This document shows, one piece after another, positions 3,155 to 26,019 of a stretch of 64,000 bases of DNA. Positions within the stretch are counted from its first letter, which is position 1, and every line of letters starts with the position of its first letter. Source of the DNA: a virus; IMG/VR virus record IMGVR_UViG_3300023235_000015, positions 1 through 64,000 of that record; one strand, given 5' to 3'. The notes beneath the pieces were generated by a model that did no database searches, was not told the DNA's origin, and worked only from the letters and a program-made list of their open reading frames with translations. The position numbers and the translations under genes were made by a program.

Positions 3155-3772
3155 ATGGCAGATTTCTATAAGACAGGATTAACAGACGATTGGGCTACAC
3201 TTAAAGGTGCCGCCCGTATTCTAGTTGCCGACATTGGACAGGCTTACCCTTCAGGTATTGACGATATTATCGTTGTAGCTTCAGGCGTAACTCAGTACAA
3301 CGCAAGAGCAGGTTGGGAGGATTTGGGAGCTACTAAAGGTGGCGTAACAGTCTCAACTAACCACACTGAAGAAACACTTTCAGTAGACCAGATATTTGGA
3401 GATATTTATTCTTCTCCTACATCATGGGAAGCGTCAGTACAGACAGCCCTAGCCGAAATGACTCTAGAACACCTTCAGCTAGTATGGGAAGGTTCAGCTA
3501 TTACGACTAACGGTGCTGGTGAACGTATTCTTGGATACGGACAGTCAGACGAGTATAAGCAGCGTCGTCTAGCAGTTCTATTCAAGAACGCTAGAACTGA
3601 TAAGATTCGCGCTACAGTAGTACGTATCGCGCAGCTACAGCCAGTAGAGTCAAGCATTGTTTTCAACCGTGAAGGCGATCAAATGACAATTCCGGTTCAG
3701 TTCAAAGCTCTAGCGGATACATCAATTGCTGATCCGAAGAGTCGTTTCTTCTTGACATTCGAGCAAGCGTAA
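3155..3772 (+). CDS. major tail (tube) protein
   Basis: DLGATKGGV, VDQ, LAEMTLEHL and IPVQFKA are tail-tube motifs. Strong SD, highly biased codons, followed by a terminator. Confidence 0.85.
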   Translation: MADFYKTGLTDDWATLKGAARILVADIGQAYPSGIDDIIVVASGVTQYNARAGWEDLGATKGGVTVSTNHTEETLSVDQIFGDIYSSPTSWEASVQTALAEMTLEHLQLVWEGSAITTNGAGERILGYGQSDEYKQRRLAVLFKNARTDKIRATVVRIAQLQPVESSIVFNREGDQMTIPVQFKALADTSIADPKSRFFLTFEQA

Positions 3773-5518: not shown

Positions 5519-8500
5519 ATGGCTAAATCTGATACTACAACTTTAACATTAATTTTAAACGCTATAAATAATATCTCACCGGAGACTGAAGATGCGCGTA
5601 AAAGTCTTGCTCAACTAAGAAAAGACTTAGAGGACGCAAATAAGCGCCAAGAGGATATAGACAAGCAGCGTGGTAAAGATTCTGATGCTATTAATAAACA
5701 AGCTGATTCAACTAACAAGCTTACTGACTCTCAAAAAAAGTTAAATGATGAGCAAGAACGAAGTGCAATCTTAGATGAAAAAATTAAGAATACTACTTCT
5801 AGAATGGAAGATAACGCTGATCAACTAAAAAGTTTAAATGAAGCTCTAAAAAGAGCGTCAGTAAGCAGACAAGAGGCAGCTAAGTGGAAAAGAATCGCTG
5901 CTGGTTATTATAAAGATGAAAATTCTACTAGTACAATAACTAAATTTACGCCTGACAAGAATGATGGCTATGGCTCTGGACCAAGATGGATTATAGAAAA
6001 TGACGATGGAAACTATAGCGATCCATTTAATACTTATAAAGAAGCTAAAGAAGATTATGATAGTTGGGTAAGTTCTAATCGTGTTTCAGAAAGAGTAAGT
6101 TATAAAAAACTTATTGCTCGTATGGAAGATTCTCAAAATAACTATGTAAGTAGTTTACAAGAACACGTTAATGAAATAAAGAAAATACAAAATGATCAGA
6201 TAAAAAATGAACAAAATACAACAAAACAAATAAATTCAGAATTAGCTAAGAGAGCAGACCTAGTTGGCGGCGGGTCTGGTGGTAGCGGTGGTTCTGGTGG
6301 TAGTGGTGGCGGCGGGTCTGGTGGTAGTGGTGATTCTGATGAAGAAGATGAGAGAAATAGAAGAATTAGACAGCTTAAAGTTGCTAGCTTAAGAGGTAAG
6401 CTAGGTAGGCTTGCTAACCAAACACAGGAAATGCGTAATCAGTATAGGGGTGGCGGCTCTATAGAAAGTGAGCTTCTAATAGACGAATGGGCTGCTAAAG
6501 CTAAAGCTATTCATGATGAATTAGACGCAATGGGTGAATCTTATGATGATATCATGGATAAGGCTAGAAGAAATCAAATTCATACAGAGTCCTTTGGCAA
6601 GAAGCATACTGCCGCGCTTAAAATGGATAGAAAGATTGAAGAAGATAAGGGCGCAGCATTTCTTCATATTGCTGACACACAAGAAGATAGTTACAAAAAA
6701 TCAATTGAGTTTGGCAAAGAAAATCTTACACTTACACAGGCTGCTACTAAAGTTGAAAAAGAACTTAGTAAACAAAGGTTGCTTGAAGGCAAGCAGGTTC
6801 AAGGCGACCTTAAAGAACAAGGCAAACTAGATAACCAAAACTCTGAGGCTAGGGACAAAGCGCACCGCGAGAGGCAAAAAGCCGAACAACGTATGGGCAG
6901 CACTATTGAATCAATCAATACCCGTACTGAAAAGCACATTGACGATCAAGTTGCTGGAACCAATAAGATTGCCCAAGAGCGCAAAAAGCTTGCTAAGCTT
7001 CTTGTTGAAGAACATGATCTTATTAAGAAAGGCGGCGATCAACTTGATAAAGATGCTAACAAAACCGCACAGGAAGTTTCTAGAAGGGCTATTACTAAAA
7101 GGGGAGGAAAGTATGATGATCTTGGCGGCATAGCTGATAATGTAATTGCTGAAAGGGACCGCTCAATTGCCGCAGCTAAAGCTGAAGCTGAAGCAACTAA
7201 AATTGCTAATAGGGAAAGAGCTAAATCTATAGCTGTAGAGAAAGAAGTTGCTAAAGCTAAGAAAAAAACTAATAAGGAAACTGATAGACAAAGTAGTTTA
7301 TTTAATGATGTAATAAATAATTGGAGAATAACTGCTAGGGCTGGTGGCGATCTTTCACGTAGGCTAGGTCGTCTAGGACTAGCTGTTCGTGGTCTAGCTA
7401 TCGTTGGTATTTTAGTATTTGCTCGTTCTCTAGTTGCTGCCCTATCAGCACTTGCTGGTTCTGCTATATCTCTAGCAGGCTCATTAATTTATGCTGCTGG
7501 TGCGTTAGGTGGAGTTTTTACCGCTGCTGTAGCACAAGCTATACCAGTAGTCGGGCTGTTAGCAACGGCTATGAGCAGGCTATCAGCTATTCAAGAGGCT
7601 GTCAAACAAAGCGACTTATTGAAAAAGCAACAGTTTGGTGATACTGGTGCTGAAGAAGCCGCAATTGATAATACTGATCAGATTGCTGATGCTAACCGCG
7701 CATTACAAGAAGCACAAGAAGGAGTTACTGAGGCGCGTAAGGATGCTAAGAAAGAACTTCAAGAACTTATCTATAAAGAGCGCGAAGCTGAATTAGCTCT
7801 AAGAGGATCAGTTCTTTCACAGGCAGACGCACAAAGAGCTTTAAGAGAGTCTATACGTGGTGGCGATGTTGAAGGAATAGCACAAGCTCAGTTAGATATA
7901 GATACTACAAGATTTGATACTGGTCAGTCACGTAGAAACTTAAGAGATGTTCGTAAAGAACGTAAACTTGGTAAACGGAATGGAGTTAATGGTGACGATG
8001 GAGTAAAAGACGCTATAAAGGCTGTAGCTGATGCTCAGCGTAATTTAGCTGACGCTCACAAGACTGCTGCAACTGCTGCTGATACTCAAAGTGCCGCTAC
8101 AGATAATCTAGCTTATTTCTTGTCTAAACTTTCTCCTGCTGAAAAAGCTTTATTCAAACAACTACAATCTTTCAAGGCTAGATTTGCTAAAGCTACTAGA
8201 CCTATTACAGATATTATTATTAGGTCTTTTGGTGATGGATTACAAAATGTAGAAAAACTTTTATTCAATCCTAAAATTCTTAAAGCTTTTACTGCTCTTG
8301 CTACAGTTGTTGGCAACCAGATTGAAAGAATTTCTAAAGTCTTAACAAATTCAGGATTTACAAGATTCTTTGAAGAAACAATTGGTGAATCATCTAAAAA
8401 CTTTCCAACAATTGTCTCAATGTTCTTGGAGCTTGCTAAGGTATTTAGAAACATTGCGACAGCTTCAGCGCCAGTACTAACTGAATTTCTAAAATTCTTT

Positions 8501-20009: not shown

Positions 20010-21410
20010 TTGATTGAGATAAAAGTCACAAACTTCATTGAGGTTAGGGGGCTACCTGATAAATGGGTAGCTTCTCTTGCTAAGCTGGTGTCAGTAGAAA
20101 ACGAGAAGAAGGCTACAGCGATAAGTGAACATACTTATGGCGCTGAATACCTACCTGATCGTTTGACCTACCTAGAAGATCAGGGTGATTACATTACGCT
20201 ACCTCTAGGCTTTGAGAAAGAGCTTACAACGCGCCTGACTGAGACTAAGACACCTTACAAAAGACTTAGATGTACTAATTTTGTATCGTCAAAATCTTAT
20301 ACAGATCATGATACTATTGCCCTTAGAGATAGACAGCCAGAAGCTAAACAAGCTATGCTAGACAATAAGCATGGACTTATTATGGCTTCTCCCGGCTTTG
20401 GCAAAACTACAGTTGGCCTTCACGCTATTTTAGAAATAGGTCAAAGAACAATAATCTTAGTTGACAAAACTGAGCTAGCTAAACAGTGGATAGTTCGCGC
20501 CAAAGAACAATTTGGTATTGATATAGGTCTTATTGGAGATAACCAATGGAACGAGCAAGACATTACAGTAGCTACGCTTCAAACTCTAAGGTCTAGAGAA
20601 GAACAGCTAAACAATGAAAACTTTTGGGATAGATGGGGAGTTGTTGTATATGATGAATCGCATCATGCTGGTAGCTCAGATAGCTACTTTAATATTGTCA
20701 GTAAGTTTAAAGCTGATCGTAGGTACGGCCTTTCAGCTACTAAAGGAAAGAGCCAACAGAAATCAAAGGTGGCCGAACTAGTATTTGGCCCTGTTTTATT
20801 TGAAGATAAAACAAATCAACTTATTCCTACTGTACACAGAGTAAAAACTAATTTTCAATTTGAATATCGTGGTACAGATATTATCAATGGAAAGCGCGTA
20901 CAGAATAATTACCAAGCTATGATAAAAGAACTTATCGCTGACATAGATAGAAATAAATTAATTGCGTCTAAGATAAATAACGAACCTAACTGCGCTCATC
21001 TAGTTATATCAAGGCGGCTACAGCACCTAGAGGACGTTCAAAGCGCCGTAATAGAGGCTGGCTTCGATCCTAAGCGGTGTTTTATGCTTACAGGCAAGGA
21101 ATCCTCAGACCGACGCTTAGAGGTCGGGAGAATGGCTGACAGCGGCTCTATCGCTATATTTTCAACCGTAGCTGACGAGGGATTGGATATCCCGCGCCTA
21201 GACAGAATACACTTACCATTTCCATCTAAGAATCATGAGACAACTAGACAACAAGTAGGTAGAGGTTTAAGAAACCATCCTGATAAAGATGAAACTATTA
21301 TCTATGATTATGTTGATTTAGAAGTATCTGTAATGCGCAATCAATGGAGAAACCGTTTGAATAGATATTACCGTCCAAACAAATTTCCCATTGAATCTTA
21401 CGAATTTTAG
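20010..21410 (+). CDS. superfamily 2 DNA helicase (UvsW/ResIII-like)
   Basis: SPGFGKT, DESHH, GLSAT, EGLDIP and QQVGRGLR motifs. Confidence 0.9.
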   Translation: MIEIKVTNFIEVRGLPDKWVASLAKLVSVENEKKATAISEHTYGAEYLPDRLTYLEDQGDYITLPLGFEKELTTRLTETKTPYKRLRCTNFVSSKSYTDHDTIALRDRQPEAKQAMLDNKHGLIMASPGFGKTTVGLHAILEIGQRTIILVDKTELAKQWIVRAKEQFGIDIGLIGDNQWNEQDITVATLQTLRSREEQLNNENFWDRWGVVVYDESHHAGSSDSYFNIVSKFKADRRYGLSATKGKSQQKSKVAELVFGPVLFEDKTNQLIPTVHRVKTNFQFEYRGTDIINGKRVQNNYQAMIKELIADIDRNKLIASKINNEPNCAHLVISRRLQHLEDVQSAVIEAGFDPKRCFMLTGKESSDRRLEVGRMADSGSIAIFSTVADEGLDIPRLDRIHLPFPSKNHETTRQQVGRGLRNHPDKDETIIYDYVDLEVSVMRNQWRNRLNRYYRPNKFPIESYEF

Positions 21411-21779
21411 TATATCATATAGGCAGGATTCTGTTTTTCAGTCAATCATCTGTCTCAGTGTTGCTCTCGCTTTTCAGCGCACTTAGCTCCCTCAATAGGA
21501 AGTGCATACTGGCCGCATCTTTACATGGTGGCTGCTCTCTACCTTCATTCCTCAAAGTTTTCGGCATCTTAGTTTTCACGCCACTATGATTAGTCCTTAC
21601 AGGAAATATTTTGAGATTGCATACCCTGCTTAACGTCTTTTCTACTTATTGGTAAATAGCGGGTTTCCCCTCCCAAAGCGGATAAGTCATTTTATATTAG
21701 GTTAGCCCTAACAGGGTTGTCCTGACCTTCCTCGACAATGAATTTGAGCCATATGCCGCGACTGACCAGATATACTAAA
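21406..21779 (-). ncRNA. rnpB: RNase P RNA (bacterial-type ribozyme)
   Basis: CR I GAGGAAGGUCAGGAC (21733-21719) and CR V ACAGAAUCCUGCCUA (21434-21420) form P4 with the bulged U. P1 is 11 bp (UUUAGUAUAUC/GAUAUACUAAA). P2 is GUCAGUC/GAUUGAC. CR IV AGACAGAUG. P15 UCUC/GAGA with L15 GGUA. Confidence 0.9.
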
Positions 21780-21829
21780 TAGGAGTGGTGGGAATCGAAC
21801 CCAACGTATTATCTGTAACCATTACCCCT
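21780..21829 (-). ncRNA. minimal tRNA-like element (acceptor stem + T-arm, no anticodon arm)
   Basis: AGGGGU...ACUCCU A acceptor stem, UGGG-UUCGAUU-CCCA T-arm, AAUGGUU D-loop-like stretch. Confidence 0.5.
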
Positions 21830-21833
21830 TAAG

Positions 21834-21858
21834 TACTGCCGTCTGGATTTGAACCAGA
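21834..21858 (-). pseudogene. tRNA 3'-half remnant
   Basis: UCUGG-UUCAAAU-CCAGA-CGGCAGU-A directly after the HNH stop codon, with no good 5' half. Confidence 0.55.
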
Positions 21859-22248
21859 TTAAAGCCTTCCGTCTAGGTATTTATTTTTATACCAGTCGTT
21901 TTCTTCTATGTGAAATATGTGGTGACAATTCCTGCATAAGACTTCGCATTTATTTATTTCATCTAAAATGCGTTGTTGAGCTATTTGTTTATGCGGCGCG
22001 TCAAATAAGCCGAATGATTTTTCGCCTCTTATATGGTGAAAGTCCAAACACCGAATATCTTTTTGACCACACTCACCACAAGGGTTGGTTGATAAATATT
22101 CGCACAGAAAAATTTGAATTTCTCTAGTTCGTTTAGCTTTTTGAATCTTAACTCTAGCTTTTTGTTTCTTTTTGTTCTTCTGATACCAGTCTCTTTGGTA
22201 CTGGCGATTTCGTTTTCGTTGCTCTAAATTATTAGGATCGTATGACAT
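21859..22248 (-). CDS. HNH endonuclease
   Basis: CGECG...LDFHH...KCEVLCRNCH..FH. Confidence 0.9.
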   Translation of the reverse strand: MSYDPNNLEQRKRNRQYQRDWYQKNKKKQKARVKIQKAKRTREIQIFLCEYLSTNPCGECGQKDIRCLDFHHIRGEKSFGLFDAPHKQIAQQRILDEINKCEVLCRNCHHIFHIEENDWYKNKYLDGRL

Positions 22249-22281: not shown

Positions 22282-22357
22282 TAGGGAAGGCGGGGATTGA
22301 ACCCGCGTGAACCAATTACCCTTTCAACTGCATATAAGACAGAGGGGATACTTCCCA
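22282..22357 (-). tRNA. non-canonical tRNA-Ile(UAU)-like RNA lacking a D-arm
   Basis: Acceptor GGGAAG/CUUCCC, arm CUGU-CUUAUAU-GCAG extended by CCCU/AGGG, T-arm GCGGG-UUCAAUC-CCCGC. Confidence 0.6.
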
Positions 22358-22396
22358 ACGATTAAAGACTCTGTTATAGAGTCTTTGGTAATACAA

Positions 22397-22468
22397 TAGG
22401 ATATAAAGGTTATGCTCCTTTTTCTCTGCCTTATCAGAGCAGCGTCTTAACTAGTGGACAAATATCCA
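22397..22468 (-). tRNA. tRNA-Ile(GAU)
   Basis: Cloverleaf, anticodon loop CUGAUAA, atypical T-loop AGCAUAA, U1.U72. Confidence 0.8.
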
Positions 22469-22481
22469 ATGTGTAAATAAG

Positions 22482-22554
22482 TGGAGCTAATAGGATTCGA
22501 ACCTACATAAAATACGTTGCAAACGTATCGCCTTGCCAATCGAGCCATAACCCC
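22482..22554 (-). tRNA. tRNA-Ala(UGC)
   Basis: Cloverleaf, G3.U70, loop UUUGCAA. Confidence 0.92.
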
Positions 22555-22570
22555 TTGATAAATTTTTAAG

Positions 22571-22643
22571 TGGTCAATCAGGGATTCGAACCCCGGACCT
22601 TCCGCATGTAAAACGGCTGCGCTACCAACTGCGCCAATCGACC
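22571..22643 (-). tRNA. tRNA-Val(UAC)
   Basis: Cloverleaf, loop UUUACAU. Confidence 0.92.
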
Positions 22644-22679
22644 TTAAATTTTACTTCTTGACTTTCTTTTTCTTAACGT

Positions 22680-22740
22680 ATTCGAACCTATGCTTTCTTG
22701 GTATGTAACACCAAAGCTCTACCTACTGAGCTAATCGGGT
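22680..22740 (-). pseudogene. truncated tRNA-Val(UAC)
   Basis: Intact D- and anticodon arms and GGUUCGAAU, but the 3' T-stem strand and 3' acceptor strand are absent. Confidence 0.7.
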
Positions 22741-22753
22741 ATGTAATTTTTAA

Positions 22754-22826
22754 AGCGCCTATTTGGATTCGAACCAAAATCTTCGACCTTCGTAGAGTCG
22801 TGTGTTATCCATTACACTATAGACGC
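22754..22826 (-). tRNA. tRNA-Arg(ACG)
   Basis: Cloverleaf, loop CUACGAA. Confidence 0.92.
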
Positions 22827-22871
22827 ATATGTAGGTTACTTTGAAGTAGAGCGTATACCTACAATACTCTA

Positions 22872-22944
22872 CACCCCTACTAGGATTCGAACCTAGACCT
22901 AACGACTTAGAAGATCGTTGCATTATCCATTGTGCTATAGAGGT
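22872..22944 (-). tRNA. tRNA-Arg(UCU)
   Basis: Cloverleaf, loop CUUCUAA. Confidence 0.92.
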
Positions 22945-23016
22945 ATATTGCTAGTCACAAAAAGTAGCTATTTTTTTACTAGCTCTTACATGAGAGGATA
23001 AGTCAATGTAAGTAAG

Positions 23017-23087
23017 CAGGAAATAAAGGGATCGAACCTTTGTTTGCAGGTTTGGAATCTGCCGTGATGCCATTACACTAATCTCCT
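23017..23087 (-). tRNA. tRNA-Trp(CCA)
   Basis: Cloverleaf, loop UUCCAAA. Confidence 0.9.
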
Positions 23088-23102
23088 ATATTTAATTTTT
23101 AG

Positions 23103-23174
23103 CTGATCCAGAAGGATTCGAACCTTCATTTTTCTGCTTAACAGGCATACGCATTTCCATTATGCTACAGATCA
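23103..23174 (-). tRNA. tRNA-Asn(GUU)
   Basis: Cloverleaf, loop CUGUUAA. Confidence 0.88.
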
Positions 23175-23187
23175 ATGTTTACTACAG

Positions 23188-23269
23188 TATCGCATATAGG
23201 ATTCGAACCTATTCACCCGAAGGAACAGTTTTACAGACTGCCATGACTCTCCAACTTCATCGCTACGAT
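23188..23269 (-). tRNA. tRNA-Tyr(GUA)
   Basis: Cloverleaf with variable arm CC-UUCG-GG, loop CUGUAAA. Confidence 0.9.
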
Positions 23270-23282
23270 ATGTTTTACTTCA

Positions 23283-23354
23283 TGATTCCTGATGGATTCG
23301 CACCACCGACGCGCAACGCTTCAAGATGCCGCTCTACTCCTGAGCTAAGGAACC
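23283..23354 (-). tRNA. tRNA-Phe(GAA)
   Basis: Cloverleaf, loop UUGAAGC, T-loop UGCGAAU. Confidence 0.85.
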
Positions 23355-23367
23355 GTATTTAATTAAG

Positions 23368-23440
23368 GGCGAACAGAGGAATTCGAATCCTCATTTTCTT
23401 GGATCACAACCAAGGGCATTAACCGTTATGCTATGTTCGC
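23368..23440 (-). tRNA. tRNA-His(GUG)
   Basis: Cloverleaf, loop UUGUGAU, C73, genomic -1 base is U rather than G. Confidence 0.9.
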
Positions 23441-23442
23441 AG

Positions 23443-23518
23443 TACGCTCGGAAGGAATCGAACCTTCAAAATCTCTTGTGTCTAAGACAAGCGGCTTTGC
23501 CAGTTTGCCCACAAGCGC
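23443..23518 (-). tRNA. tRNA-Leu(UAG), short variable arm
   Basis: Cloverleaf, loop CUUAGAC. Confidence 0.9.
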
Positions 23519-23535
23519 ATGTTATTTTTACTTCA

Positions 23536-23606
23536 ATCACCGGCTAGGATTCGAACCCAGATAAGATGCCCCAAAAACATCTGTCTTACCGTTAGACGAC
23601 CAGTGA
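23536..23606 (-). tRNA. tRNA-Gln(UUG)
   Basis: Cloverleaf, loop UUUUGGG. Confidence 0.88.
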
Positions 23607-23609
23607 ACA

Positions 23610-23681
23610 TTGCTTAGAATGGATTCGAACCACTATCCCTAGATTCAGAGTCTAGTCACTTACCAATTAGTGTACCAAGCA
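23610..23681 (-). tRNA. tRNA-Gln(CUG)
   Basis: Cloverleaf, loop CUCUGAA. Confidence 0.9.
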
Positions 23682-23695
23682 TTATTTTTACTACA

Positions 23696-23767
23696 AGCCT
23701 AAATACGGAATCGAACCGTAATTATCTGATTACAAAACAGAGGTAATAGCCGTTATACTATTCAGGC
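23696..23767 (-). tRNA. tRNA-Thr(UGU)
   Basis: Cloverleaf, loop UUUGUAA. Confidence 0.9.
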
Positions 23768-23798
23768 GTATGTTGTTCATACATTATACCATACTTCA

Positions 23799-23882
23799 AG
23801 GAAGGGCAGAGATTCGAACTCTGAGGGCTGTTACGCCTAGCTGTTTTCAAAACAGTGTCCTTAACCAATTCGGATACCTTCC
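23799..23882 (-). tRNA. tRNA-Ser(UGA)
   Basis: Cloverleaf with long variable arm, loop UUUGAAA. Confidence 0.9.
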
Positions 23883-23897
23883 ATATTTAATTTTAAG

Positions 23898-23981
23898 CGG
23901 AATACTCAGGGTTCGAACCTGAAGGGCTTTTATGCCTTGTCTCTTTAGCAAAGAGAGTCCTGTCCAATTCGGTTGTATTCC
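23898..23981 (-). tRNA. tRNA-Ser(GCU)
   Basis: Cloverleaf with long variable arm, loop UUGCUAA. Confidence 0.9.
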
Positions 23982-24038
23982 AGATGCCATACCAGTGTAG
24001 CAGATTGTATGCTAGACGGTATGGAGTTTAGTACTTCA

Positions 24039-24111
24039 TGGCGGGTATCGGTGCCGCCCCGATTCCTAGAGCTTATGAGACTCCCGACTTATCTACCTTG
24101 TCCTACCCGCT
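24039..24111 (-). tRNA. tRNA-Met(CAU), possibly initiator-like
   Basis: Loop CUCAUAA, A1.C72 mismatch, atypical T-loop GGCGGCA. Confidence 0.8.
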
Positions 24112-24122
24112 TTGTATGTTAC

Positions 24123-24152
24123 ATTATATCAAATGATAAGGAGTAGCGTCAA
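24123..24152 (-). promoter_or_regulatory. sigma70-type promoter inside the tRNA array
   Basis: TTGACG-N18-TATAAT with TG extension. Confidence 0.7.
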
Positions 24153-24346
24153 CCTTTAATCTAAGTTCTTAATATTAGAGTAGCTTACACCAGACTTCTA
24201 CTGGTTCCTACATAAGTTATAAAAGTTATAAAGAAATATAAAAGGTATCGGGCGGGAGGTACATATTGCGCCATATGCTTCCTCACATTATTCTCAGTAG
24301 AGATTTTTATATTAACCTGCTAGCGGTAGGTCGTCCGATGTTATAG

Positions 24347-24429
24347 TACCCTTACTAGGATTCGAACCTAGACGCATATTTCAGCAGTTGGGCTTAAACC
24401 AACCGTGTCTACCATTTCACCATAAGGGC
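24347..24429 (-). tRNA. tRNA-Leu(UAA)
   Basis: Cloverleaf with variable arm, loop UUUAAGC. Confidence 0.9.
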
Positions 24430-24439
24430 TTATGTAAAA

Positions 24440-24513
24440 TGCTGCTACTAGGATTCGAACCTAGACTTTACCGCGTTTGAAACGGCTTCCTCTACCAATT
24501 GGGATATAACAGC
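24440..24513 (-). tRNA. tRNA-Leu(CAA), short variable arm
   Basis: Cloverleaf, loop UUCAAAC. Confidence 0.88.
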
Positions 24514-24522
24514 TTATGTAAA

Positions 24523-24555
24523 TCAGACTAACAGGATTTGAACCTATATAATCTT
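24523..24555 (-). pseudogene. tRNA(Pro-like) 3' fragment/minihelix
   Basis: AGAUUA-U-AUAGG-UUCAAAU-CCUGU-UAGUCUG-A. Confidence 0.55.
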
Positions 24556-24557
24556 AA

Positions 24558-24628
24558 TCGGAATACGTGGAGTCGAACCACGGCTTCTAAGTTCCAAACC
24601 TAGGGTGCTACCGTAACACCTTATTCCG
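24558..24628 (-). tRNA. tRNA-Pro(UGG)
   Basis: Cloverleaf, C1-G72, loop UUUGGAA. Confidence 0.9.
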
Positions 24629-25010
24629 TTATGAAACGTGAGCTTGTTCTAATTGCGTGACAATTGGCACAAACTAATTCACATTTACTAATTTCTTTTG
24701 ATATCTTTTCTATACCGAAACCTCTTGCGACCATGTTACCAACATTGAATTCTTTATCATTTTCAATATGATCCCAATGCATTACTATAGGTGGGTATGT
24801 ATTGTCGCAATCTGTACAAGGGCCGGACTTTATTTTGTTCGACCATTCTCTTAAGTCTTTACGCCTTGATTTATTTTGTGAAGCCCTTTTGCCTTTATCA
24901 GACTCGTAGCGTTCCTTATCATAAACTTTAACGCAAATCCTACACCAAGATTGTCCCTTATTAAATTCTGATTCTGTTTTAGTCTTAGTACATCTAGAGC
25001 AGTTCTTCAT
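24621..25010 (-). CDS. HNH endonuclease with N-terminal zinc finger
   Basis: CSRC..CRIC and CTDC...MHWDH...KCELVCANCH. The stop codon lies inside tRNA-Pro. Confidence 0.9.
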   Translation of the reverse strand: MKNCSRCTKTKTESEFNKGQSWCRICVKVYDKERYESDKGKRASQNKSRRKDLREWSNKIKSGPCTDCDNTYPPIVMHWDHIENDKEFNVGNMVARGFGIEKISKEISKCELVCANCHAIRTSSRFITE

Positions 25011-25016
25011 AAATGA

Positions 25017-25044
25017 AATATACCATATTTGGAAACTTTGTCAA
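25017..25044 (-). promoter_or_regulatory. sigma70-type promoter (leaderless HNH mRNA)
   Basis: TTGACA-N16-TATATT with TG extension, 6 nt before the ATG at 25010. Confidence 0.6.
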
Positions 25045-25058
25045 ATGTTCCAAATAAA

Positions 25059-25130
25059 TTGCCGGTATGGGTAACGATCCCATTTCTGAAAGTTAAGAGC
25101 TTCCTGCATCACCATTAATGCTTACCAGCT
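25059..25130 (-). tRNA. tRNA-Lys(CUU)
   Basis: Cloverleaf, loop CUCUUAA, T-loop AUCGUUA, A1.A72. Confidence 0.82.
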
Positions 25131-25138
25131 ATGTAAAG

Positions 25139-25210
25139 CGGTTCATGAGGGTTACGATCCCTCTTATTCTGATCGACAATCAGATGTAATAACCAGTATA
25201 CGAATGAACC
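25139..25210 (-). tRNA. tRNA-Asp(GUC)
   Basis: Cloverleaf, loop UUGUCGA, T-loop AUCGUAA. Confidence 0.88.
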
Positions 25211-25213
25211 AAA

Positions 25214-25288
25214 TGGTACGGAATAAGAGAATTGAACTCTTGTTTCAAGGATGAAAACCTCGCGTATTCTCCACTATACTAATCCCGC
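25214..25288 (-). tRNA. tRNA-Glu(UUC)
   Basis: Cloverleaf, loop UUUUCAU, encoded CCA. Confidence 0.9.
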
Positions 25289-25301
25289 GTAAATTTTAAA
25301 A

Positions 25302-25374
25302 AGCATCATTAGAGATTCGAACTCTATTCTCTTGGGTGGAAGCCAAGTATGTCAACCATTTCTACTTATGATGC
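25302..25374 (-). tRNA. tRNA-Gly(UCC)
   Basis: Cloverleaf, loop CUUCCAC, U73. Confidence 0.88.
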
Positions 25375-25377
25375 ATA

Positions 25378-25449
25378 TTGCCCCTGAGTGACTTGCACAC
25401 TCGCCCCAAGGCTTAAAAGGCCCGGATCTACTTGTTGAATTAAGGAGCT
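25378..25449 (-). tRNA. tRNA-Lys(UUU)
   Basis: Loop CUUUUAA, T-arm GAGUG-UGCAAGU-CACUC, weak D-stem, A1.A72. Confidence 0.75.
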
Positions 25450-25461
25450 TCGTTTACTAAG

Positions 25462-25539
25462 TGGAGAAGAAGGGTATCGAACCCTTGTCTTAGAGAGCGC
25501 ACTTCGGCAGTAACTCTAATCGAATCCTATCGCTTCCCC
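25462..25539 (-). ncRNA. ssrA: mini-tmRNA: tRNA-like domain only, no mRNA-like domain
   Basis: GGGGAAG/CUUCUCC-A acceptor with G3.U70, stemless D-loop CGAUAGGAUUCGA, P2 UUAGAG/CUCUAA closed by 18 nt, GAC linker, T-arm AAGGG-UUCGAUA-CCCUU. Confidence 0.75.
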
Positions 25540-25570
25540 GTGTTTTCCTACAGTTGATACCTGTTCGTAC

Positions 25571-25579
25571 ATTATAGCA
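25571..25579 (-). promoter_or_regulatory. extended -10 promoter upstream of the mini-tmRNA
   Basis: TGCTATAAT. Confidence 0.55.
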
Positions 25580-25602
25580 CAGATGCCCCGCGCCGTGTAG
25601 AG

Positions 25603-25674
25603 AGATTGAGAAAGGATTCGAACCTTCATAAGACAGGGTTGCAGCCTGCCGCGTCACCATTCCGCCACTCAATC
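25603..25674 (-). tRNA. tRNA-Cys(GCA)
   Basis: Cloverleaf, loop CUGCAAC, U73. Confidence 0.92.
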
Positions 25675-25685
25675 GTGTTCTAGGT

Positions 25686-25714
25686 ACTATACAGGGTCGC
25701 GCGGAGAATGTCAA
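25686..25714 (-). promoter_or_regulatory. sigma70-type promoter heading the tRNA array
   Basis: TTGACA-N17-TATAGT. Confidence 0.75.
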
Positions 25715-26019
25715 GCTCTGCGATTAAAGACCCAAGGGCGCTCTCCTTCAATAATTTCATCAGCATGAAAATCGTCGTGACAATATTTACACATTAAAAC
25801 GCATTTATTAACTTCGGACCAAAATCTTTTATGGCTACATTTAGCTAAGTAAGTAACTGTATTTAGTTTAGTTTCAGGGTTTATATGATGAAACTCTAAA
25901 CTTACGTGTGGAGTAATACACTCTGGAATGTAACATTTATTTCCAAGATGTTCTTTAGCATCATTTACTCGCTTATTATATCTACGTTTTTGTGATGCTT
26001 TTTTTGCTTCGCTTTGCAT
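25711..26019 (-). CDS. HNH endonuclease
   Basis: LGNKC...C...LEFHHINP...KCVLMCKYCH..FH. Confidence 0.88.
   Translation of the reverse strand: MQSEAKKASQKRRYNKRVNDAKEHLGNKCYIPECITPHVSLEFHHINPETKLNTVTYLAKCSHKRFWSEVNKCVLMCKYCHDDFHADEIIEGERPWVFNRRA

Follow-up and report, generated by a model that had tools for sequence, protein, structure and literature searches.

Does a bacteriophage carry, at the end of an array of transfer RNA (tRNA) genes, a ribozyme of the kind that bacteria use to mature their own tRNAs? Ribonuclease P (RNase P) RNA, hereafter P RNA, is the ribozyme that trims the 5′ end of new tRNAs, and it is regarded as a cellular housekeeping molecule. The question is raised by a minus-strand segment of about 374 nucleotides (nt), located at 21404..21779 in IMG/VR virus record IMGVR_UViG_3300023235_000015, a phage genome of 102,342 bp rated 100% complete by CheckV; the window analysed here is the first 64 kb of that record (positions 1 to 64,000). 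A preliminary description, made from the sequence alone, had read this segment as a phage-encoded P RNA. The comparisons reported below lead us to hold, with high confidence, that it is a genuine phage-borne gene for a P RNA derived from bacterial type A, homologous to it over the whole catalytic domain (P1-P5, P15/L15, P16, P18 and the conserved regions CR-I, CR-IV and CR-V), the helices of which are being kept by selection. Full-text literature searches and reviews yielded no report of a virus-encoded P RNA, although absence there is not proof.

Identification of the Phage RNase P RNA Gene

The gene is matched from end to end by the Rfam covariance model RF00010 (RNaseP_bact_a). In E-value mode, the search of the window placed 21404-21777 (minus strand) on model positions 1-367 of 367 with 37.3 bits and an E-value of 1.1e-9, and the search of the whole genome returned the same place, with an E-value of 1.6e-11, as the sole such site in the genome. 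The presence of a P RNA in the flagged stretch was thus confirmed, and the covariance model lends it significant E-values (1e-9 to 1e-11), though the score stays under the Rfam cut-off; at gathering thresholds Rfam reports only tRNAs in the window. The Infernal alignment covers P1, P2, P3, CR-I/P4, two P5 pairs, J5/15, P15, P16, CR-IV, P2′, CR-V/P4′ and P1′. It leaves unaligned the specificity domain (S-domain), where 96 nt stand for 162 model positions, and the region after P15, where 76 nt stand for 24 positions, figures that bear out the compact S-domain and the expanded P16-P18 side of the preliminary description.

An Orthologous Locus and the Covariation of Its Helices

The P RNA gene is convergent with a gene for an SF2 DNA helicase (phrog_16; 20010..21410, plus strand), which served as a synteny anchor. 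A search for related loci with the single helicase protein found none. The helicase homologues were graded, the closest four (P0002-P0005) being 77-82% identical, and a search with an alignment of the homologues led to a contig from an independent metagenome (L135), the helicase of which is 80% identical. This contig contains an orthologue of 312 nt (L135:1431-1742) that matches RF00010 over model positions 1-367 with 44 bits and an E-value of 2e-10, and the order of genes is the same in both phages, namely helicase (plus strand), P RNA (minus strand) and tRNA array (minus strand).

Comparison of the two RNAs over 68 homologous base pairs showed 55 identical pairs, nine double changes that still pair, one wobble change and three pairs mismatched in one copy, so that the covariation envisaged in the preliminary description was indeed found in a related phage contig. 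The nine double changes are spread over P1 (three, consecutive), P4 (one), the closing pair of a P8-like hairpin (one), one S-domain helix (one) and P18 (three). When pairs were counted on the 63 that MAFFT aligned correctly, 97.6% of the cells were paired and eight double changes were retained; sliding the partners by 1-3 columns as a control left 0-1 double changes and 31-41% pairing.

The two sequences differ overall at about 20% of the aligned positions. CR-IV and the 3′ strand of P2 together show no difference over 18 nt, and CR-I shows one in 14, which is compensated. The 63 nt that are absent from L135 all lie in peripheral hairpins, inside P16 and after P18. This combination of an invariant single-stranded core, covarying helices and peripheral insertions or deletions is the signature of a functional structured RNA and speaks against a decaying pseudogene.

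Architecture of the Catalytic Domain

The helices and motifs that had been named from the sequence (an 11-bp P1, P2, P4, CR-IV, P15 with GCAA and GGU, and two S-domain hairpins) were all recovered at their places by a script check. All elements described here lie on the minus strand. P1 joins UUUAGUAUAUC (21769..21779) to GAUAUACUAAA (21406..21416) through 11 perfect pairs, three consecutive ones being changed in a compensatory manner in L135. P2, formed by GUCAGUC (21760..21766) and GAUUGAC (21441-21447), has seven pairs that are identical in L135, and the P3 hairpin (21734..21757; 7 bp with one bulged base and a 9-nt loop) differs between the two phages in its bulge and loop only. CR-I, which aligns with the CR-I of the model and provides the 5′ strand of P4 with its bulged U, is GAGGAAGGUCAGGA (21720..21733). 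It pairs with 21420-21427 within CR-V, ACAGAAUCCUGCCUA (21420..21434), which was placed by the model alignment and by the script check. P4 built in this way from CR-I and CR-V is AGG-U-CAGGA/UCCUGCCU, i.e., 8 bp plus the bulged U, with one A-U to G-C swap in L135. CR-IV (J18/2), AGACAGAUG (21447..21455), is likewise aligned to the model and is identical in L135.

The segment at 21534..21619, also aligned to the model, contains J5/15 (GCAA), P15 (UCUC/GAGA), the L15 internal loop with GGU at 21541-21543, and P16 (UUCCU/AGGAA). It reads GCAA-UCUC-AAAAUA ... AAGGUA-GAGA-GC around the retained GGU, and both P15 and P16 are identical in L135. A P15/L15 internal loop with GGU is a hallmark of type A RNAs, whereas type B RNAs have a P15 hairpin at this place. 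The periphery is more variable. A 48-nt insert inside P16 (21553..21600), of which 40 nt are absent from L135, could contain a P17 in the window copy only, since P16 of L135 is capped by a loop of 8 nt; a P6 pairing was not recognised. The P18 hairpin (21512..21532; GCCAC...GCGGC, with GUAAAG in its loop) shows two compensatory pairs in its stem and one in its inner part. Between P18 and CR-IV the window RNA has two extra hairpins (21459..21511), the place of which is taken by one different hairpin in L135.

Variants of P4 and CR-IV

When P4 of the window RNA is compared with that of Escherichia coli rnpB (L164), three pairs differ, each of them changed on both sides. The preliminary description had taken these differences as strong evidence of selection on structure. 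All three are indeed double changes, but two of them are common bacterial variants, and the argument is weaker than originally put because bacterial P RNAs often have a G-C at the second pair and an A-U at the last one. The GAGGAAGGUC...GCCUA variant of P4, with G-C and not A-U at the second pair, occurs in 120 or more species of bacteria, chiefly Acidimicrobiia, Nocardioides and Burkholderiales (L165-L284), and GAGGAAGGUC was therefore rejected as a phage-specific signature. In these 120 bacteria, G-C or C-G is found at the counterpart of E. coli C71-G356, and G-C or A-U at the last P4 pair. Thus, two of the three departures from E. coli belong to normal bacterial variation and only the A-U at the 71/356-equivalent pair is unusual. 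This same pair is A-U in the window and G-C in L135, and the swap within the phage lineage is better evidence than the comparison of E. coli with the phage.

In 99 of the 120 bacteria with the G-C variant of P4, CR-IV contains GAUG where the Rfam consensus has AAUG, and GAUG is also found in the window RNA, in L135 and in the P RNA of an unrelated phage (L122, see below). This is suggestive of a tertiary co-variation between P4 and J18/2 that would have been kept in the phage RNA, the bacterial count covering G-C-form bacteria only.

A Rebuilt Specificity Domain

Infernal provides no alignment for the S-domain (21620..21719, minus strand), which spans 100 nt in each of the two orthologues and is invariant over 22 nt at its centre, CCGCUUUGGGAGGGGAAACCCG. 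Its secure elements are the P5/P7 stem, a P8-like hairpin (21697-21711) and the GGGGAAACCC hairpin, GGG-GAAA-CCC (21661-21670). The P8-like hairpin, (U/C)UAGG-GCUAA-CCUA(A/G), is closed by a U-A pair in the window and by a C-G pair in L135, a compensatory change. The remainder allows more than one fold: the strand at RNA positions 94-100 has two possible partners, 132-137 (helix B) and 147-152 (helix B′, at the position of P10), giving mutually exclusive 6-bp helices, each of which shows one compensatory change and one mismatch in the two sequences, and the single-sequence and RNAalifold folds of the domain disagree.

What could such a domain still do? Both orthologues have kept P18 and the P8-like hairpin, and each of these elements covaries between them. 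A P8/P18 contact links the two domains of P RNA (PMC5839562), and the retained P8-like hairpin fits with an ability still to meet the P18 loop. Since P10-P14, CR-II and CR-III are not recognisable, the phage RNA probably differs from the cellular enzymes in how, or how strictly, it recognises the tRNA elbow. The catalytic domain (C-domain) alone cleaves substrates in vitro, less efficiently (PMC5839562), and a weakened S-domain is therefore compatible with activity.

Genomic Setting

The window belongs to a tailed phage that encodes a 3,053-aa tape-measure protein, a terminase, DnaB, a primase, a split DnaE polymerase and a ribonucleotide reductase; its DnaE is at most 33% identical to that of the closest cultured relative. 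The presumed substrates of the P RNA are the products of 22 co-oriented tRNA genes (22396..25674, minus strand; ARAGORN and Rfam). Many spacers in this array are only 1-17 nt long, and the 3′ CCA is encoded in tRNA-Glu only, the other 21 of the 22 tRNAs being without it. Three open reading frames (ORFs) for HNH endonucleases (phrog_2255 / phrog_3106) are interspersed in the array on the same strand (21859-22248, 24621-25010 and 25711-26019).

The P RNA had been described as filling the gap between the tRNA array and the helicase gene. It does adjoin the helicase gene, the stop codon of which lies at 21408-21410, so closely that the ORF overlaps the outer ~5 nt of the 3′ strand of P1 (21406-21410), but the end of the last canonical tRNA (22396) is 616 nt away. 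That gap is occupied by an HNH ORF, tRNA remnants and a degenerate tRNA-like RNA (22282-22357, minus strand) with a UAU anticodon loop and without a normal D-arm, which scores 24.6 bits against RF00005, below the cut-off, and is not called by ARAGORN. Next to the ribozyme, folding indicates a tRNA-like minihelix of 50 nt, composed of an acceptor stem and a T-arm (21781..21830, minus strand), the 3′ end of which falls 1 nt before P1. It is preceded by a lone T-arm with a 3′ acceptor strand (UCUGGUUCAAAUCCAG-ACGGCAGUA), the two together spanning 21781-21858 on the minus strand. In L135 the corresponding place is taken by a tRNA-like gene that is intact, with the same T-arm and CUUAUAU in the anticodon loop, and that ends 1-2 nt before P1 (L135:1743-1830, minus strand); the HNH ORF at 21859-22248 appears to have disrupted the copy in the window. 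That the tRNA-like gene of L135 and the minihelix of the window end 1-2 nt before P1 suggests that the ribozyme is cut from the array transcript by tRNA-end processing. We also would like to mention that the tRNA array of L135 contains a weak match to the manA RNA motif (L135:3626-3866, minus strand; 27.3 bits against a cut-off of 55.2).

As to proteins of tRNA maturation, the remark that no rnpA is visible in the window holds for the whole 102-kb genome, in which neither rnpA (PF00825) nor a member of the RNase Z family (PF12706) was found. Outside the window, a PolyA_pol/CCA-adding family domain was detected with 85.5 bits in a 491-aa open frame (G000:C1:89505-89888, minus strand), and the protein is a probable phage CCA-adding enzyme.

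The gene has a narrow distribution. RF00010 found no match in relatives with terminases 52%, 36% and 33% identical, which have 4, 7 and 2 tRNAs, respectively. An unrelated 96-kb phage with 31 tRNAs (L122) has a P RNA of 364 nt between two tRNAs. Because the relatives with few tRNAs are without a P RNA and the unrelated phage with 31 tRNAs has one, we regard the P RNA as an accessory gene that a narrow lineage acquired along with its many tRNA genes.

Proposed Function and Its Alternatives

Our reading of these observations is that the phage makes a working P RNA that uses the RnpA of its host, to which, arguing from sequence and structure comparisons, we give a probability of about 0.7. The minus-strand transcript of the tRNA array would include the RNA, which would be freed by the enzymes cleaving around the tRNA-like element that adjoins its 5′ end. 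As the phage encodes no rnpA, the RNA would assemble with RnpA of the host, and it would then remove the 5′ leaders of the closely packed phage pre-tRNAs, raising the capacity for tRNA maturation in infection alongside the phage CCA-adding enzyme. The rebuilt S-domain may entail a relaxed or altered recognition of the elbow. A more tentative extension, which we consider possible but rather doubtful, is that this domain gives the phage ribozyme a substrate range unlike that of the host, extending for instance to the tRNA-like RNAs of the array or to acceptor/T-arm minihelices such as the one next to the ribozyme, or favouring phage pre-tRNAs over those of the host. If this were true, the phage would run a private, re-targeted pathway of tRNA maturation with its own CCA-adding enzyme.

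Several observations weigh against a working P RNA. The RF00010 score of 37.3 bits (44 bits in L135) misses the gathering threshold of 100 bits by far, because Infernal cannot align the S-domain and the region after P15. CR-II, CR-III and P10-P14 are not recognisable in the unalignable S-domain. The A-U at the 71/356-equivalent P4 pair was not seen in any of the 120 bacterial sequences. The covariation comes from one pair of sequences, for which a two-row shuffle control is weak (3/500). No promoter or terminator signal near the gene rises above shuffled sequences, and RF00010 finds no match in one helicase relative that carries 24 tRNAs.

Could the fold have been kept for binding and not for catalysis? 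An RNA of this kind might be a regulator or a decoy to which host RnpA or pre-tRNAs bind, and could for instance divert RnpA from the host M1 RNA or hold phage precursors. The rebuilt S-domain without recognisable CR-II/III would suit such a role, as would the lack of a phage rnpA, which obliges the phage to use, or to compete for, the host protein; conservation of structure as such fits binding as well as catalysis. However, the strictest conservation is found in the parts that form the active site and hold the 3′ end of the substrate (the bulged U of P4, CR-IV, CR-V, GCAA in J5/15 and GGU in L15). Binding of RnpA alone would not obviously need the GGU of L15 or J5/15, and a gene that closes a tRNA array and co-occurs with large tRNA sets fits processing, all of which makes a purely binding role unlikely in our view.

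A functionless, decaying remnant of a bacterial rnpB captured along with tRNA genes would have the low score (37 vs 100 bits), the unalignable S-domain and the large insertions or deletions between orthologues on its side; the nearby HNH genes and tRNA remnants show an array that is rearranging, and the more distant relatives are without the P RNA. Decay should not, however, leave nine compensated changes against three mismatches, core motifs almost invariant at about 20% overall divergence, insertions and deletions confined to peripheral hairpins, and an S-domain that measures 100 nt in either phage, with a shared invariant centre of 22 nt, and we judge a remnant to be very improbable. For a chance resemblance, or for an assembly artefact joining host DNA to a phage contig, nothing speaks other than the sub-threshold score. 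In our view, the E-values of 1e-9 to 1e-11 and the L135 orthologue refute this possibility, an independent assembly having the gene at an identical place among phage genes; the flanking genes are those of a phage and the contig is rated complete.

A working phage P RNA, our preferred reading, would matter in several respects. Its combination of an intact catalytic half with a re-engineered substrate-reading half would amount to a compact natural experiment on the need for the S-domain. It would also mean that phages with many tRNAs bring maturation machinery too, in the form of a 5′ ribozyme and a 3′ CCA-adding enzyme beside the tRNA genes. With its 374 nt, the gene is small and directly testable in vitro.

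Relation to Known RNase P RNAs

Where does the phage RNA stand among known P RNAs? With E. coli M1 RNA (type A) it shares P1-P5, the P4 pseudoknot with its bulged U, CR-I, CR-IV and CR-V, GCAA in J5/15, P15/L15 with GGU, P16, P18 and the P8-like hairpin, and P9 of E. coli is identical to the phage GGGGAAACCC hairpin. It differs from E. coli and other bacterial type A RNAs in being encoded by a phage, in having a 100-nt module in place of an S-domain of ~155 nt, without recognisable P10-P14 and CR-II/III, and in its 48 additional nt in P16, two further hairpins after P18 and one A-U pair in P4. A naturally reduced RNA is known in the type T P RNA of Thermoproteaceae/Pyrobaculum, which is an archaeal cellular gene (PMC3579882). 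Type T and the engineered E. coli RNA consisting of the C-domain only (PMC5839562) resemble the phage RNA in having an intact catalytic domain and a lost or reduced S-domain; in contrast to both, the S-domain of the phage has been replaced and not deleted, and its P8/P18 elements are retained.

Searches with blastn and megablast against 50,697 phage records gave no match, and among 120 bacterial rnpB loci and all other loci nhmmer matched the P RNA to L135 only, so that no donor lineage can be named. Lineage-specific patterns taken from the S-domain or from CR-IV/CR-V, and a pattern run with a gap range of 236-264, detected no further copy of this RNA among viral contigs.

P RNAs as such are not unique to the window among phages; what sets this 102-kb phage apart is a near-full-length P RNA whose S-domain is non-canonical. 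The others comprise the P RNA of L122/L163 (364 nt, 76.6 bits), two RNAs that exceed the Rfam cut-off, namely one of 297 nt in a 27-kb IMG/VR phage contig (L285:1887-2183, plus strand; 173.9 bits) and one of 270 nt in a 318-kb IMG/VR phage contig (L286:6188-6457, minus strand; 145.8 bits), both in tRNA arrays, and three minis of ~200 nt (L061, L121 and L016). A search with a 14-mer CR-I pattern was too unspecific, yet it turned up these three mini P RNAs. Like the window RNA, the others are located within phage tRNA arrays or at their ends, and the GAGGAAGGUC variant of P4 is common to all; L135, L285 and L286 share an identical P4. L135 excepted, they have no primary-sequence similarity to the window RNA by nhmmer. 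They also differ in the S-domain: L122, L285 and L286 keep the canonical core (ACAGAGA/UGAAA), the minis are without an S-domain, and the window RNA and L135 have the non-canonical module of 100 nt. One of the minis, of 204 nt (3202-3405, minus strand; 46.4 bits), is found in a 26-kb viral contig (L121) that also contains about 30 tRNAs and, at 7430-7900 on the minus strand, a GOLLD RNA (191.6 bits) with a tRNA inside.

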